Virus record (IMG/VR): IMGVR_UViG_3300042886_000261
Location: 1-64,000 of that record
Source: a virus
Strand: one strand, 5' to 3'
Length of the DNA stretch: 64,000 nucleotides
Position 1 is the first letter of the stretch. Every line of letters starts with the position of its first letter. Shown here piece after piece: positions 4,356-64,000 of the stretch. The translations under genes were made by a program, and so were the position numbers. A model generated the notes under the pieces. It was not told the DNA's origin. It did not search any database and worked only from the letters and a program-made list of their open reading frames with translations.

Positions 4356-6566
4356 TTATTTTAAATTTTTAAATGGTGATCTGTTAAATTTTTGATTTTC
4401 ACCTAATCCACTTCTACCCATATGTCTAAAAGGACTACTCTTTAAGGTATACAAATTTTTTGAATTTTCCAATTTTTTACTTGCCTCATCTCTTACAATT
4501 CTTTTTGTATAACCCATATTAGCTTGTTGGATTTTAAGAAATGAAACTAATGCAGAAAAAGCTACTAACCTATCCACGTTGAGTCCATCTTGATAAGCCT
4601 GCATTTCTTTCATTAACATTATATCCGGTATTCTTTCTACACCATAATGTATCTTTACAGTAGTACCATCATCTTTCTGTATATGATCTATCTCTTCAGT
4701 TAAGAAATCTTGAGTATAACTGATCATATGATTCTTAAATAGTACTCCTGTATTTCTCCATCCGTATTCCTGGAATACATTTGCATTAGAACCTAAATCT
4801 TTTAAGAATACTATTTTGTTTCTTGGTACCAGATATCTTTGTTTCTTTCTTGATATCATGTGGTTTATAAATTGAGATATATTATTCTCTACTATAGTCC
4901 ATGCATTATACCATTCTATTATTAACTCTAGTCTCTCATGTGTTTTATTGATATCATCAAACCTTCCACACCATGCTGCTACAATTTTATCTCTTTCTAT
5001 AAATGTCTCAGCCTCACCATTAGTAACCTTAGTTACTTCAACTGGAGCTTTCATTATATATATGGAACATAGTGAGTCTGAGGTAGTTGTCTTTCCTTCT
5101 GCAACAGGGTCAATACTACCATAGTACATACCAAATGTAGGATCTGGTACTGGTCTTTCCCATACTACTAATGTACCTGTTTTATCTTCTGTCTTCTTAG
5201 ATATAGGGAATTCTGCTATTGGTAATTTATTAGTAGCTTTTACTTTTACTTTACCGGTTTCATCTCTAGATATATCAAGAAACTCTGAAGAGTATTCTTT
5301 TTCTTCTATTCTTTTTATCTGAGCATTTACAAGATGTGGTGGGAATTTAGCCTCTTTTCTAAATGCAAATGCCTCTTCTATATTTCTTGGATGCTGAGAT
5401 ACCTCAAGTTGATAATCTTTAGGTTCTTTATTTTTCTTGATTTCCTCAAAGTATTCATCTAAAGCAATTAATGCTTCTTGGACAAGTGAATTACCATAGT
5501 CATCTATATATGGTGGCATAGACCATTGTTCCGGTATAAACAATCCTGATTCTCCCCATGTATTATCTTTATCAATTAGATTAGTTTTAACTGGGTATAT
5601 ATCATTACTAATTGGATCAAGTATCATTTTCTTTAAAGGACCACATTGATCAAGATCCCCTACTGATCCTGCAGCAATAAATAATCCTGTAGTAATCATA
5701 CCAGACTTAAGTGCTGGCTTGATATATCCAAAAGTTGTATCCATCTTGGGAGCAATTCCTGCTTCCTCATGAAAGAAGAACTTAACTGGACCCCCTACAC
5801 CATTTGTTGGATCTTTCTCAAAAGACATACCTTGCATAGTACCTTTAAGTCCTATTTCAGCTTTTCTATCACCTTTTCTTATTTCAATTTTTTGTTGCCA
5901 CATCATTATTTTATCTGGAGACATAGGTCTATACCATGCAGTATGTTCATTTAAGAATGCTGCATACTCAGATAAAAACTTCCATGTACCTTTCTCATTG
6001 ATGTAATCTTTAAGTGAGGCACCCATTTTTAATGTGACCCCTGCTTCAAACCATAACTGATTAATGAGTTTACCTGCATGAAAGTATGAACTAGCTATCT
6101 GTCTTTTTTTAAGAATAGCCACGTGCATGTAGTTTATCTCTGCAAGTATCTCATATAAAGCCATGTGATATTGTGCATCTCTTATCTTAGCAAATCCAAA
6201 CTTTTGCTCTTCCTTATCAAAGATAGGTAAGAAGTTTAACCACATATAATAATCTCTTGTAAGGAACCAGGTTTTAGGTCCTGATTTAATTATTACACCT
6301 AATCTGCATTTAGCTTTTTGGTCTTCCCAATAGTTAATAAAATCTTTAGATTTAAAGGGAGCTACACAATATACTTTATCTATATTGAATTTTGTTGATT
6401 CAGATATAAATATTTTATTACTAACATCATCAAATTCATATTCACCTGGCTCTTTAAATAATGCAAACACAAACTCACCAAATTCTTTTCTTGTATCAAA
6501 AGATGTAGTAGTCCATGTTCCATTATCCCAGGTGGGGATATCCGTGTACATATTTTCCATAATCAA
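4356..6566 (-). CDS. terL: Terminase large subunit
   Basis: ATPase motif LKKRQIASS, Walker B FFHEEAG, nuclease-domain GSIDP and DRLVAF; adjacent to portal. Confidence 0.92.
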   Translation of the reverse strand: MIMENMYTDIPTWDNGTWTTTSFDTRKEFGEFVFALFKEPGEYEFDDVSNKIFISESTKFNIDKVYCVAPFKSKDFINYWEDQKAKCRLGVIIKSGPKTWFLTRDYYMWLNFLPIFDKEEQKFGFAKIRDAQYHMALYEILAEINYMHVAILKKRQIASSYFHAGKLINQLWFEAGVTLKMGASLKDYINEKGTWKFLSEYAAFLNEHTAWYRPMSPDKIMMWQQKIEIRKGDRKAEIGLKGTMQGMSFEKDPTNGVGGPVKFFFHEEAGIAPKMDTTFGYIKPALKSGMITTGLFIAAGSVGDLDQCGPLKKMILDPISNDIYPVKTNLIDKDNTWGESGLFIPEQWSMPPYIDDYGNSLVQEALIALDEYFEEIKKNKEPKDYQLEVSQHPRNIEEAFAFRKEAKFPPHLVNAQIKRIEEKEYSSEFLDISRDETGKVKVKATNKLPIAEFPISKKTEDKTGTLVVWERPVPDPTFGMYYGSIDPVAEGKTTTSDSLCSIYIMKAPVEVTKVTNGEAETFIERDKIVAAWCGRFDDINKTHERLELIIEWYNAWTIVENNISQFINHMISRKKQRYLVPRNKIVFLKDLGSNANVFQEYGWRNTGVLFKNHMISYTQDFLTEEIDHIQKDDGTTVKIHYGVERIPDIMLMKEMQAYQDGLNVDRLVAFSALVSFLKIQQANMGYTKRIVRDEASKKLENSKNLYTLKSSPFRHMGRSGLGENQKFNRSPFKNLK

Positions 6567-24513: not shown

Positions 24514-24777
24514 TTATTCAAATACCTTATACATCCTATTAAATTTTTTTTCTGGCATGAGTGAAAATGTACCGGCCCAATCCTGTATCACATAGTCCCC
24601 CGGTACTAATCTAATTTCACCATTATCAGTAGTGAGAAAAAAGCTATCAAATTTATGATTGATATAATTAATATGTCCCTCAAAATTCTCATATCCGGAA
24701 ATCTTAATAGCACATTCTTCTGTACCATCATACTGTATAGCCTCAATACTCTTAGGCCTTTCTCTATATAACTGCAT
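24514..24777 (-). CDS. Conserved phage protein (IEAIQYDG...PGDYV family)
   Basis: Motif pattern common in phages; own TATCTTTG promoter. Confidence 0.7.
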   Translation of the reverse strand: MQLYRERPKSIEAIQYDGTEECAIKISGYENFEGHINYINHKFDSFFLTTDNGEIRLVPGDYVIQDWAGTFSLMPEKKFNRMYKVFE

Positions 24778-24809
24778 AATAAATAATTTTAAGATACAAA
24801 GATAATAAT

Positions 24810-24882
24810 AAAAACAAAATCCCCAGACATGTGCCCAGGGATTTCCTTACCTAACTAAATAAATTTAAAAAAATTTATGATA
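24810..24882 (-). ncRNA. Putative small RNA C
   Basis: TATATTTG promoter 24887-24894 right behind a terminator; no upstream ORF; 3' end shares 16 nt (TAGGTAAGGAAATCCC) and GGGATTTTGTTTTT with sRNA A. Confidence 0.55.
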
Positions 24883-24898
24883 CATGCAAATATACAAT

Positions 24899-25030
24899 AA
24901 AAAAACCCAGGTAGTAATTCTTGATCAGAGAAACTTTCCTGGGGGTAGTAAAGTTATAGACATTGTCCTTTCCCTTACTAAGAAGTCCAAACCTGGGACG
25001 CTGATCTTACGGGAAGCGTGTCTGGCACCT
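24899..25030 (-). ncRNA. Putative structured small RNA D
   Basis: TATATTTG promoter 25035-25042; GC-rich stems AGACA/TGTCT, CGCT/AGCG, TCCC/GGGA; CCCAGG/CCTGGG terminator plus U-tract. Confidence 0.55.
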
Positions 25031-25221
25031 AATACAAATATAAAACAATTCCCCGGGAATACACCTTACCTATAATAAATAAATACGGAGGTAGATTTAG
25101 TATATGCAGTAAGATGTAGTGGACCCTCCATAGCAAACCCCCCGGCCCTTCAGGCCTAGCTGGTACCCCCCATTGTTTAAAGGAATTCAGCTCACAACCA
25201 TTATGAAAAATACTAAAAATT

Positions 25222-25419
25222 ATGAGAACAGATATTAGAATTGTACTTGTGTTGGTGGATCCAACACTTGCTACTGCTGCACCTGAAGGTGCTAGAGTTA
25301 TTGCTATGAGCCAAGCTCAAGCAATGATCAACACCTGGATAACACAAGGTGTTCTTGTTAAATATAAAGTTGGCCCTTGTAATGACCACTTATTATTTGA
25401 GATTATAAGAACTAAGTAA
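25222..25419 (+). CDS. Early hypothetical protein
   Basis: A-rich leader; followed by terminator taagggt/accctta. Confidence 0.6.
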   Translation: MRTDIRIVLVLVDPTLATAAPEGARVIAMSQAQAMINTWITQGVLVKYKVGPCNDHLLFEIIRTK

Positions 25420-25433
25420 GGGTTATACCCTTA

Positions 25434-25488
25434 TTTTTTTCTTGCCTGCGGCAGCTTTTATTTATTCAGCTCTAAACTATTAGGGATA
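25434..25488 (+). repeat. Early-region repeat copy (triloop hairpin + CAGCT..ATTCAGCT..AAACT..GGGATA)
   Basis: Near-identical to 25953-26004; partial copy at 25144-25193. Confidence 0.8.
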
Positions 25489-25517
25489 TAAATGTTTAAT
25501 TAATTAAATTTAGAGTT

Positions 25518-25844
25518 ATGGAAACTGTTAAAGACCCAATTGCGGTTTGTACTATTAAAAGTATAGACGCAGAAATCAGTATCAATACCAATGGTAAAAG
25601 ATACAAAAAAGTAACTTTAATCACTGCTTCAGGGAAACCTGCTAGAGGAGTGATTTATGAAGTTGTGTGGGATAAAGTATCTCAGGGAGATGAAGTAAAT
25701 GTGGCGTTATCCTTAATGGATGATAACAAAACACTTATCCCAAGTGTATTAGGATTACCAATGGAATCATTATCATATGATGATTTTGGTATCACTGCAC
25801 CTGCACCTGCTGTTAAAGATGATATGGAAAACCCATTCTCTTAA
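25518..25844 (+). CDS. OB-fold/SSB-like early protein
   Basis: Beta-rich (NGKRYKKVTL) with acidic DDMENPFS tail. Confidence 0.5.
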   Translation: METVKDPIAVCTIKSIDAEISINTNGKRYKKVTLITASGKPARGVIYEVVWDKVSQGDEVNVALSLMDDNKTLIPSVLGLPMESLSYDDFGITAPAPAVKDDMENPFS

Positions 25845-25855
25845 CACGGAAGAAT

Positions 25856-25892
25856 AAACCCTTACCTTAATAGGTAGGGGTTTATTATTTTT
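25856..25892 (+). terminator. Intrinsic terminator
   Basis: aaacccttacc/ggtaggggttt hairpin plus T-tract. Confidence 0.7.
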
Positions 25893-25952
25893 ATTCCCAT
25901 TGTAGTTAAATGTATTACTGTGTTTGATATACTGTGTATGATGCACTATGTA

Positions 25953-26004
25953 TTTTTTCTTGGCTTTGCCAGCTTTATTATTCAGCTTTAAACTGTAGGG
26001 GATA
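25953..26004 (+). repeat. Early-region repeat copy
   Basis: Matches 25434-25488 with a covarying hairpin stem. Confidence 0.8.
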
Positions 26005-26470
26005 GTAGTGTTGGTAAATTATGTGGTCTATTGATATAAAGATATAATGTCATTTAACTACATGGTCTTATTATATATACTTAGTCAGATGCATTAAGTA
26101 TAAGTTGACAGTAATGTTGTATTTATATTAATCATATTGACAGTCTCACACCGGTACTTGTAGTCAAATTGATTATATTATAGGTGATGTTAGTTATGTT
26201 GTAGGTAATGTTGTAACATGCTGGTAGTTAAATAGTTATGTGGATATAATTTGTGTGAGAATGTGTGAGATAAAGTAGTTGACAGTCAAACACCCACCTA
26301 AACTAATGCTTTAACTCACATCTGTAACTACCTGATTAGGCTATATCTATATTAATATATGGCTAAATCATGAACTTAGTCTACTCACTCACATTACAAT
26401 ACTATATTCTTATCTATTAGTTAGTAGGAGAGTATAATAGCTATTGAATCCGGAATCTTAATAAATTTAA

Positions 26471-26683
26471 AATAGTAATGTACCATTCTCACTTCCCAAG
26501 GGTGAGCAGTTGTAATACACATATAGACTCAGTTGAAACCTCCAAAGGCTCCCTTAAAAAGCCCAATAGAATATTTGGTAAATACTGTTTAAAATGGTGT
26601 ATGTAACATGTCTGTGATAGACTCTTTAATTAGAGAACTAAAACATCAGCTTATGTATTACAACTGAGTACAGAGGGATTATT
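26471..26683 (+). ncRNA. Twister-like self-cleaving ribozyme (type P1) with ~135-nt insert in P5
   Basis: P1 aatag/ttatt; UAA cleavage loop 26476-78; P2 tgta/taca; P4 ctcac/gtgag with loop (t)TCCC-AA-GG; T1 TCCC/GGGA; T2 CC/GG; GA after P2'; 13-bp P5. Confidence 0.65.
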
Positions 26684-26684
26684 A

Positions 26685-27225
26685 CCGTGATGTCCTGTTT
26701 GGGTTCTTGAATACACGTAAAAACTGAAGAACATCCTATCCAGTAAGTTGCTGGCGTTGGCTCACCATAACAGACAAGTGAGAAATTAAATGTAGGTGAC
26801 AACCATTAACCAAAGAGGATCTTTGGGGTTACGCTGAACAGATTGACAAAGTCTTTAGTATCATAAATCGGGGATGCCCAGTTCAGTATTGATACACTAC
26901 ATTTTAATAACATAGTCCTATGCACCTTAACCAATAAAAGCTAAGGGACTTAATCCGTTAAACAAAGGTGGTTAGCAATAACCAGTATATAAGGAGTGTT
27001 ATTATTATATGATTCAAGACAATCAATCCTGAAGAGGATTTGTCAGGAGAAATTCATAAGGCTGAACAATAGTTCAGTATATAAACTTATGATGTCTAGC
27101 CTGATATAAACAAGCAGAGTACATTGTACTAACTTATCTGTGCTTTTGGAGTTAGCTACCAAGGGTGGGAACGGGGAACAGAGTGTGTAGATATTCCATG
27201 GGTCTACACCTGCTTGTTTATTTTT
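26685..27225 (+). ncRNA. Multi-domain structured non-coding RNA region
   Basis: No ORF in the track, GC-elevated, many nested inverted repeats (e.g. 26788-95/26897-904, 27054-60/27086-92, 27106-17/27210-21). Confidence 0.55.
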
Positions 27226-27265
27226 ATTAACTGAAAAATTATTAACTGAAACTAAAACTGAAAAG

Positions 27266-27406
27266 ATGAAAGAATTAACATGTAGTCAATGTGGTAATAT
27301 TATTATAGAATCTTATGTAACAAAAGGAACATATATACAATGTTTTGATTGTTATGCACAAGAAGAATATGATTTTGAAAACCCAAATCTTAATGATTAT
27401 GAATAA
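27266..27406 (+). CDS. Small zinc-finger protein (46 aa)
   Basis: Not in track; MKELTCSQCG...QCFDC. Confidence 0.55.
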   Translation: MKELTCSQCGNIIIESYVTKGTYIQCFDCYAQEEYDFENPNLNDYE

Positions 27407-62147: not shown

Positions 62148-64000
62148 TTAACAAGATTTTTTATAAAGTGAAGCTGCTTCTAATATTCTTTTTTTAGTTA
62201 AAGGATCAGATACTGTTTCTTTAGCTAAGTTAGTTGTTCCTGAACCTAATATAGTATTATCTGAAAGTACATAGTAATTAAATTTAGTAGCTGGATCAGT
62301 AGACACTCTTAATGTACCATCTTGTAATTCTTTTCTAATATACACTTTATTTTTAATAGTTTGCTCAGTTAATTCTTTACCATTACCAAAATATATTTTA
62401 CCATCTGGTTTAATTGTAAAAGTATATTGATCTACTTTTATATTTCTTTCTTCTGGTTCAGATTTTTTAACTATAACTTCTCCAGTTTGTCCATCAGGAA
62501 CTTCTTCTTGTAGTTGTTTTACTATTGGTGCAACATTAGAAACATCAGATGCTTTATTAGTATAAACATAATCCATTTTAGATGTTCTACTTAAACCAAC
62601 ATATCTTAACATATTTCTTTCATTACCGTATGGTTTACCATTATAACTAATAATTTTATTATTAGCTGGGTTATCCATATTTTCATAATCTACAAATACA
62701 TTATCATATGTAGAACCTTGAGCTTTATGTGCTGTTACAGCATAACCATAATCAATATTTTTACTAAAAAATGCTTTAATATTTAATTTTTCATATTGTG
62801 ATGTACCATCTGCTTCTATTTTAAATAACTCAGGTCTTTCTTTTTTAAGAATTGACATTGTAGTAGGCTCATTTTCAAATAATAGTACATCATCTGGGAA
62901 TTGATATTTACTAAATAATGCATCTAATTCTGAACTAGCTTTAGCTCTAAATTTCCAAGCAATAGTATTATTATTAATAGCTTTTTTTACATCTAAAAAT
63001 TGCATTAATATATTTAAATTATTAGAATCACGTGGATTTATAATAAAAACTTTTTGAGGTTTTAATAATTGAGGACTGTGTGTTTTTATTAACTCAGTAT
63101 CACTTTCATTAAAAACTCTTTTAACTTCTATATTCCATCCAGAAAGTTTTCCTTTAATAATATGTGTTGTATTTAAAATACGCTCATTATATAATGAAAC
63201 TTCTTTTGATTCTTGATACTCATTACTTATTACAGTATAATCTTGTCCATTATTAATTATACTATCAGCACTTGATTGCTCATATCCCATAAGAGTTGAT
63301 CCTACACCATATGATTCATCAATATTCATACTTGAAAAAATTTGTTGATTATAAAGAGCAACAGATATATTTGAGTATGTAATTATTTTAGCATATGCTG
63401 GATCTTTTTTATACTCTTCTGAAGTAAAAGCATCAAACATTTTATTTTTAAATTCAGTTTTATCTTTTATAAAGTTAACACCTTCACCTTCACTATTTAT
63501 TTCTGTATCAAAATTAAAATTTTCATTTATGTCTAACATATTATTTCTAACACCAGTAATAATTTTTAAAACAGGGTTATCTTCTTTTTGTCTCATGATT
63601 TCTGTTAACTCATATCCTTCATTATCTTTAGTGTATGTTAATGCTGGACTTAATGAACTATTTCCTACAGGAGGTAACTGAGCAGGATCACCCATGAATA
63701 TTACTGTAGTGTTTTCATCTTGTGCTAAATCATAAATATCTTTATAATCAGAATTATCAATCATAGATGACTCATCTATTATTAAAATTCCATTACTTGG
63801 TACTGCATGATTAGGGCCTGGTTGAAAAACACCATTAATTTTACGTTTATTTAAAAGTTTAGCAGTTGTTATAGGTTTTTTAGTAACACCTCCTCTAATT
63901 AATTGTACTAATAAATTTATAGATGCTTTATGTGTAGGAGCTGCATATACTATTTCTTTCATACCTCTATGTTTAGTATTTACATAAAGTTGAATAAATT
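62148..64000 (-). CDS. Protein with SF1B (Dda/RecD-like) helicase domain; 5'-truncated by window
   Basis: APTHKA, IIDESSM, GDPAQLPPV, LTEIMRQ, YAVTAHKAQGSTY, YVGLSR; frame is open to the window edge and Walker A is absent from the window. Confidence 0.85.
   Translation of the reverse strand, partial: FIQLYVNTKHRGMKEIVYAAPTHKASINLLVQLIRGGVTKKPITTAKLLNKRKINGVFQPGPNHAVPSNGILIIDESSMIDNSDYKDIYDLAQDENTTVIFMGDPAQLPPVGNSSLSPALTYTKDNEGYELTEIMRQKEDNPVLKIITGVRNNMLDINENFNFDTEINSEGEGVNFIKDKTEFKNKMFDAFTSEEYKKDPAYAKIITYSNISVALYNQQIFSSMNIDESYGVGSTLMGYEQSSADSIINNGQDYTVISNEYQESKEVSLYNERILNTTHIIKGKLSGWNIEVKRVFNESDTELIKTHSPQLLKPQKVFIINPRDSNNLNILMQFLDVKKAINNNTIAWKFRAKASSELDALFSKYQFPDDVLLFENEPTTMSILKKERPELFKIEADGTSQYEKLNIKAFFSKNIDYGYAVTAHKAQGSTYDNVFVDYENMDNPANNKIISYNGKPYGNERNMLRYVGLSRTSKMDYVYTNKASDVSNVAPIVKQLQEEVPDGQTGEVIVKKSEPEERNIKVDQYTFTIKPDGKIYFGNGKELTEQTIKNKVYIRKELQDGTLRVSTDPATKFNYYVLSDNTILGSGTTNLAKETVSDPLTKKRILEAASLYKKSC

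Follow-up and report, generated by a model that had tools for sequence, protein, structure and literature searches.

The early promoters P1-P3 of coliphage N4 (Schitoviridae), which are read by the injected virion RNA polymerase gp50, are DNA hairpins on the template strand, each with a loop of GGA or GAA and a stem of 5-7 bp centred at -11. Supercoiling drives their extrusion, and SSB stabilises them (PMC4496689; PMC13037366). Among crAss-like phages, phi14:2 is the only one with mapped early 5' ends (10.1101/2020.03.07.982082). Its polymerase gp66 transcribes single-stranded DNA well and prefers it, its promoters are undefined, and no common upstream motif was detected for the early gp66 transcripts, while the middle promoters of phi14:2 are read by the host enzyme and are phage-specific in sequence (Drobysheva et al., 10.1101/2020.03.07.982082). 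The structure of gp66 has been solved, and we found no early-promoter consensus for Crassvirales in the published literature that we searched. Very small DNA hairpins have also been described in their own right: the melting temperature of d(GCGAAGC) is 76 C, phage priming sites are among the places where mini-hairpins are found, and a G-to-A change in a mini-hairpin with a four-base loop, from GCGAAAGC to GCAAAAGC, markedly increased the binding of SSB (PMC13037366).

We were interested in three repeats in the genome of an uncultured virus, in which an earlier note had seen a resemblance to N4-type hairpin promoters and hence candidate promoters for a crAss-like virion RNA polymerase. We refer to them as elements A, B and C. 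The window, i.e., the whole stretch of DNA that was analysed, consists of 64,000 nucleotides and represents the first 64 kb of a virus record of 106,750 bp with about 30% G+C.

Genome layout and the RNA polymerase gene

The large terminase and portal proteins of the virus are 21-25% identical to their Crassvirales counterparts, and the closest cultured match is the Leptolyngbya phage Lbo-JY46 (GenBank PP438436.1), with 31% identity in the portal (E 9e-105). Judged by these proteins, the phage under study is a distant crAss-like phage. Because Lbo-JY46 is a cyanophage and not a Bacteroidota phage, the host of the lineage is uncertain. A megablast search of the 4-kb region around the elements against GenBank phages gave no match.

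The genes point leftward in the first 24.8 kb, rightward between 25.2 and 57.7 kb, and leftward once more over the rest of the record, beginning at 58 kb. The rightward block encodes a DnaB-like helicase, a Toprim protein and a DNA polymerase, and the leftward block from 58 kb is a series of giant frames. Since the gene directions switch there, elements A, B and C are located exactly at the divergence point and head the rightward block; the gene map bears out the claim that they head the first rightward units. The same region is the GC-skew minimum and the strand-switch point of the genome.

One of the giant frames, comprising 4133 codons, contains in its middle (about residues 1780-2550) the core of a gp66-type RNA polymerase. 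phi14:2 gp66 matched the frame in tblastn with an E-value of 2e-20 and in BLASTP, over about 770 residues, with an E-value of 3e-29. The DFDxD-type catalytic loop of gp66 homologues is present, GADYDVDK in the frame standing opposite GSDFDIDK in phi14:2 gp66 (DYDVD versus DFDID). The earlier note is supported in so far as the phage encodes a gp66-type polymerase and the catalytic motifs of the two enzymes align. Given its homology to the phi14:2 enzyme, the polymerase is presumably carried in the virion and injected. The C-terminal end of the frame, inside the window, is a DprA-like domain together with a Dda/PIF1-like helicase, and one frame fuses the polymerase core to both. The two-barrel gp66-type enzyme is the sole RNA polymerase detected in the genome. 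A search of the genome for a T7-like polymerase (PF00940) gave no match, although it gave none in the control genomes either, and a search for a sigma factor found no Sigma70_r2 domain, with the control working.

A box repeated at the head of the first rightward units

All three repeats are found in the sequence where the earlier note had placed them (Table 1). The repeated unit is a box of 14-15 nt, NTYCARCTYNNAACT, which follows a T-rich tract. Exact copies of the box are confined, over the whole 106.7-kb genome, to positions 25185, 25464 and 25980 on the plus strand. A search for AGCT followed within 3-30 nt by ATTCAGCT gave three matches in 106,750 bp, again all here and all on the plus strand. 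Element B comes after the intrinsic terminator of the 65-aa ORF. About 60 nt separate element C from the terminator of the 108-aa ORF, and the 1.2 kb that it heads are free of ORFs.

Table 1. Features of the switch region and the polymerase gene (window positions unless marked otherwise)
Feature	Position	Strand	Description
Element A hairpin	25144..25161	+	GGCC 25144-25147/25153-25156, 5-nt loop; then T and AGCT 25158-25161
GGTACCCCCCAT block of element A	25162..25173	+	kept with at most small changes in L124, L133, L134, L138 and L150
Box copy A (ATTCAGCTCACAACC)	25185..25199	+	exact pattern match; ATG at 25222, 37 nt on
First early ORF, 65 aa	25222..25419	+	no family match; intrinsic terminator 25414-25436 and T run after it
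Element B mini-hairpin	25442..25454	+	stem 25443-25446/25450-25453 TGCC/GGCA, loop TGC
Box copy B	25464..25478	+	8 nt past hairpin CAGC; ATG at 25518, 54 nt on
Second early ORF, 108 aa	25518..25844	+	no family match; terminator 25853-25886 after it
Element C mini-hairpin	25960..25972	+	stem 25961-25964/25968-25971 TGGC/GCCA, loop TTT
Box copy C	25980..25994	+	6 nt past hairpin CAGC; heads ORF-less stretch
ORF-less stretch, ~1.2 kb	26004..27266	+	no ORF >54 aa; ends in 12-bp helix 27106-27117/27210-27221 and T run
4133-codon frame	genome 62148-74549 (62148..64000 in window)	-	3' end within window

Conservation of the box in related phages

We used the 108-aa ORF, whose product is 64-96% identical among the relatives, as the anchor for finding related phages, which yielded lineages at 96%, 72%, 68% and 64-67% identity. 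An exact 17-mer of the B-type hairpin matched 36 stretches, mostly of unrelated coding sequence, and added one new relative (L150). A metagenome scan yielded one short relative (L143). L124 was found via a 561-aa neighbour; its contig stops inside the switch region, so that only the A-like element is readable. A loose DNA pattern (CAGCTTT, a gap, ATTCAGCT) was abandoned, as it returned chance matches in IMG/VR, none of them with the hairpin and the rest of the box.

Six related phage lineages carry between two and eight boxes each, in the same place. There are three in the genome under study, eight in G002 (within 2.3 kb), six in L138, four in L150 and two in the short contig L143, while the complete 121-kb genome G003 has five within 1.3 kb. 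The boxes of the relatives are all on one strand, and the complete genomes have none elsewhere. Some lineages have ATTCAGCT..AAC as the sequence of the box, others ATCCAACT..AAC, and the positions that never vary spell NTYCARCTYNNAACT. Positions 3 and 6 vary inside one genome (L150), which speaks against a strict co-evolution of the box with a phage factor.

Each small early gene forms a separate unit in all relatives found, with the same plan: a terminator-like hairpin and T run, the box, 37-54 nt (where counted) and the ATG. In most units the box follows the terminator T run by 0-5 nt. The mini-hairpin is present at three of the eight boxes in L133, two of the six in L138 and three of the five in L134. 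As most units of the relatives have the box without a mini-hairpin, the box and not the hairpin is the common denominator of the family, and the mini-hairpin cannot be required for recognition. This distribution makes the box the better candidate for the core promoter, to which the hairpin would be an accessory.

The earlier note had called for a motif search in the early regions of relatives. The box recurs in six lineages and the mini-hairpin in a subset of their boxes, and phi14:2 and Lbo-JY46 are without these elements. In the first 12 kb of phi14:2 we found no mini-hairpins, no shared repeat and no cluster of boxes, and GCGNAGC occurs in its whole genome only at scattered sites. Lbo-JY46 has no box-like repeat around its switch region and no such cluster; the one C-GNA-G hairpin in its first 45 kb lies within a tRNA. 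Since both phages are without these elements, the signal is specific to the studied lineage. We found no cultured system that carries the box and hairpin elements.

Mini-hairpins on the template strand

The loops on the template strand are as first described, C-GCA-G in element B, C-AAA-G in element C and T-GAA-G in element A. The template strand of element B reads TGCC-GCA-GGCA, with an additional T.G wobble at 25442/25454. That of element C reads TGGC-AAA-GCCA, which is the one non-GNA loop. The orthologous stems of element C are TGAC/GTCA (L138, L143 and L150) and TGC/GCA (L134), with GCA or GTA as template loops. An 18-nt hairpin pattern had two matches against 0.08 expected, and a covariance model of hairpin and box, run over the whole genome, retrieved only B (E 7e-16) and C (E 2e-14), with the next hit at an E-value of 0.1.

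The hairpin-bearing units are those before the 108-aa ORF (B type) and before the ORF-less stretch (C type), with one extra in L133 and in L150. The distance from hairpin to box is 6-8 nt in all 13 distinct hairpin-bearing copies, and that from the hairpin to the upstream terminator is variable, from 0 to about 60 nt. The stems are TGCC/GGCA, TGGC/GCCA, TGAC/GTCA or TGC/GCA, between the invariant flanks CTTG...CAGCTT. In a structure-guided alignment, all 60 stem cells are paired. One stem pair is CG in nine copies, AU in three and GC in one, five copies are without one pair on both arms, and the covariation score was reached by none of 500 shuffles. Covariation of the stem, first noticed as TGCC/GGCA in B versus TGGC/GCCA in C, thus extends to the relatives through compensating changes. 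It is real, but it concerns one pair position among fairly close lineages, whose neighbouring protein is 64-96% identical. A palindromic protein-binding site was considered as the main reading and rejected, because both the length of the stem and the identity of its bases change.

The sense loops are TGC, TTC and TAC (TTT once), corresponding to GCA, GAA and GTA (AAA once) on the template strand, where the outer G and A are retained and the middle base is free. In terms of sequence, this pattern is what defines a G-N-A triloop and its sheared G.A pair. Over both strands of the genome there are only two C-GNA-G hairpins whose stem has at least 3 bp, and B is one of them. Nearly all C-GNA-G hairpins in the loci of the relatives occupy the template strand, and the distance from the end of their stem to the following box is 9-11 nt. 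The heptamer GCGNAGC occurs three times in the 121 kb of G003, every time on the template strand adjoining a box, and the reversed control gave no occurrence. An independent 6-bp hairpin with a GAA loop stands 2 nt before the first box of L134, with no rightward unit upstream.

Located between the terminator T run and the next box, the B- and C-type hairpins are probably untranscribed. As RNA, the three-pair stems would be negligible. In L133 (4060-4101), the terminator-like hairpin before a box without a mini-hairpin has the tip CCTTCGG, which is CCGAAGG on the template strand. CCGAAGG is another mini-hairpin sequence. Nearest-neighbour DNA folding of the elements gave -1 to -2.6 kcal/mol, with z-scores not different from those of shuffles; as standard models miss the stability of mini-hairpins according to a review (PMC13037366), the folding energy neither helps nor hurts.

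Element A

The hairpin of element A is located 28 nt from its box, compared with 6-8 nt for B and C, and on the minus strand its GAA loop is closed by T.G. The GGCC/GGCC stem is identical in L133 and L138 and absent in L134, L150 and L124; the hairpin therefore shows no covariation and is limited to some lineages. The AGCT that follows it is not conserved in the relatives. Element A is accordingly only a partial member, whose hairpin is a different feature and which has the box alone in common with B and C. In every lineage, no other piece of the first early unit is as well conserved as the GGTACCCCCCAT block. It is preceded by a C-rich run (25139-25143), and it is retained even in L124, whose box is degenerate.

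Other signals and the ORF-less stretch

The earlier note had also claimed that the elements lack TAnnTTTG, and the plus strand from 24700 to 27400 contains none. Three are found on the minus strand at 24797, 24887 and 25035, reading TATCTTTG, TATATTTG and TATATTTG within 250 nt (24797-25042). The trio would fit Bacteroidota-type -7 elements heading short leftward units. Just past element C, tandem TTGACA motifs occur (window 26105-26300), and in the relatives TTGACA is followed 15-16 nt on by TATAAT (L133 6050-6100; L134 6595-6680; L143 850-900). The TTGACA/TATAAT pairs are candidates for sigma-70-like promoters directed rightward into the ORF-less stretch. These nearby signals suggest that the box forms a separate class. 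A sigma-70 reading of element C itself (TTGCCA-17-TAAACT) was rejected, because it could not be transferred to B.

Hairpin C is separated from the preceding terminator, that of the 108-aa ORF, by about 60 nt (25895-25950) that are highly conserved in L133, L134 and L143 and include a TTAAAT-16-TATACT motif (about 25906-25933). This stretch could serve unit C as a promoter further upstream or as an enhancer.

The ORF-less stretch is the presumed non-coding transcript of unit C. It is conserved in the relatives (L133 about 5940-6560; L138 4440-5560), with an insert of variable length between conserved 5' and 3' parts. A helix enclosing a TTCCCAAGG loop at 26482-26520 shows a compensating change, CTCAC/GTGAG here versus CCTGA/TCAGG in L138. 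Rfam gave no match in the region at E-values up to 1, and none up to 10 for the shorter copy from L133.

Proposed function and alternative explanations

Our preferred explanation, to which we would give an even chance, is that elements A, B and C serve the injected gp66-type polymerase as early promoters specific to the phage, with the box as the core and the template-strand mini-hairpin as an accessory. The repeat with its clustering and strand, its conservation, the covariation of the stem, the bias of the loop and the gene for the polymerase are observed directly; the start site, the polymerase that reads the box and the extrusion of the hairpin are what we infer. The core promoter would be the box NTYCARCTYNNAACT behind its T-rich tract, and each copy would start its own short unit, consisting of the promoter, one small gene or the 1.2-kb non-coding stretch, and a terminator; the three units together would constitute the first rightward block. 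The box would be read by the gp66-type two-barrel polymerase, encoded in a giant gene next to other giant genes. At B and C, the hairpin would act as DNA on the template strand, in the extra-stable C-GNA-G form and in the untranscribed gap. The inverted repeat may extrude, or stay folded once the AT-rich spacer opens, and the folded hairpin would then present single-stranded template to a polymerase whose phi14:2 counterpart prefers single-stranded DNA. As a consequence, the promoters of B and C would be the strongest or the earliest. The AAA loop of element C speaks against the hairpin part of the proposal, given the effect of a G-to-A change on SSB binding. The absence of these elements from phi14:2 and Lbo-JY46 also counts against the proposal. 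That a two-barrel virion polymerase recognises its earliest promoters via an extruded template-strand C-GNA-G mini-hairpin together with the downstream box is, in our view, possible and rather doubtful.

It seems unlikely to us that the boxes are promoters at which the RNA polymerase of the host starts, possibly helped by a host factor or an injected one that has gone unrecognised; in this case the hairpin would be a regulator site or a modulator of DNA structure. Their position and the architecture of the units would suit any promoter, a precedent for host-read promoters of phage-specific sequence exists in the middle promoters of phi14:2 (10.1101/2020.03.07.982082), and the variation at positions 3 and 6 within L150 can also be counted in favour of the host enzyme. 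However, the box resembles neither TTGACA/TATAAT nor the Bacteroidota TTTG/TAnnTTTG, neither pair is found in the elements at the proper spacing of sigma-70 or Bacteroidota sigma-A promoters, and both types are present nearby as separate signals. In addition, no sigma gene was detected by the Sigma70_r2 search, and the stems change in length by one pair per arm, which would not be tolerated by a dimeric protein reading a palindrome. The mini-hairpin might instead belong to the end of the upstream unit, as a second weak terminator or as a template-strand roadblock insulating the cassettes, which we consider quite improbable. A simple scan does list B and C as terminator-like, with the wobble as a fifth pair and a T-rich tail each, and in B and several relatives the hairpin comes directly after the terminator T run. 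The spacing argues otherwise, being fixed at 6-8 nt to the downstream box and ranging from 0 to about 60 nt to the upstream terminator. Moreover, a stem of 3 bp, as found in orthologues, is too weak to act as a terminator in RNA, termination has no need of the conserved CAGCTT flank, and the GAA hairpin of L134 precedes the first box with no rightward unit upstream of it.

There is little chance that hairpin and box function as RNA within 5' leaders, for instance for processing or as a translational operator, with the promoters further upstream. Upstream of C, the TTAAAT-16-TATACT stretch could start a transcript containing hairpin C and the box. Most boxes, however, are 0-5 nt past a terminator T run, where there is no room for a promoter, and the sense loops (U-N-C) match no known stable RNA loop, whereas their complement is G-N-A. 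A very slim chance is left for the hairpins being single-strand initiation signals for origin priming, like the mini-hairpins of the G4 origin or ssiA. Mini-hairpins are known at phage priming sites (PMC13037366), DnaB-like and Toprim proteins are encoded, and the elements coincide with the GC-skew minimum and the strand switch. The switch in skew is nevertheless explained by the change of gene orientation at this point, and an origin does not require a fixed spacing to a box that is repeated before every small gene.

If the two-barrel polymerase does recognise these elements through the extruded mini-hairpin and the box, they would provide the first defined promoter for crAss-like virion polymerases. 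An enzyme unrelated to the T7-like polymerase of N4 would then have arrived by convergence at the way in which N4 starts on freshly injected DNA. A role for the hairpin would mean that DNA-hairpin promoters have evolved convergently in two unrelated families of polymerases. The signal would also serve as a marker of immediate-early genes in the genomes of uncultured phages. It is short and sharply defined, a box with or without a mini-hairpin that is conserved in several lineages, and can be synthesised and tested with the recombinant polymerase domain.

Comparison with known systems

With phi14:2, the locus shares a homologous polymerase with an aligned catalytic motif, as well as the arrangement of small rightward early genes followed by long ORF-less stretches, which in phi14:2 are early and strongly transcribed. 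With the d(GCGNAGC)/d(CCGAAGG) mini-hairpins of Hirao and co-workers, it shares exact sequences, as the template strands of the relatives carry GCGAAGC and GCGTAGC; element B, a C-GCA-G loop on a GCC/GGC stem, belongs to the class by its sequence, whereas the AAA loop of element C falls outside it.

The likeness to N4 lies in a few copies clustered at the head of the earliest genes, in a small template-strand hairpin whose 3-nt loop is G-N-A with a closing C-G pair and whose flanks are conserved (the AAA loop of C excepted), and in a phage-borne polymerase from a family that prefers single-stranded templates in vitro. The geometry differs: in N4 a stem of 5-7 bp is part of a block from -17 to +1, with the start 8 nt after -8, while here 3-4 Watson-Crick pairs and a T.G wobble are followed 6-8 nt on by a box of 14-15 nt. 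All N4 early promoters have the hairpin, compared with about half or fewer of the boxes here, and the N4 enzyme is T7-like, in contrast to the two-barrel gp66-type enzyme of this genome. Of the resemblance to N4-type hairpin promoters that was noted initially, the G-N-A loop on the template strand stands; the presence of the hairpin in a subset, its different geometry and a polymerase unrelated to that of N4 do not agree with it. Since the polymerase families are unrelated, any likeness to the N4 promoters would be convergent.
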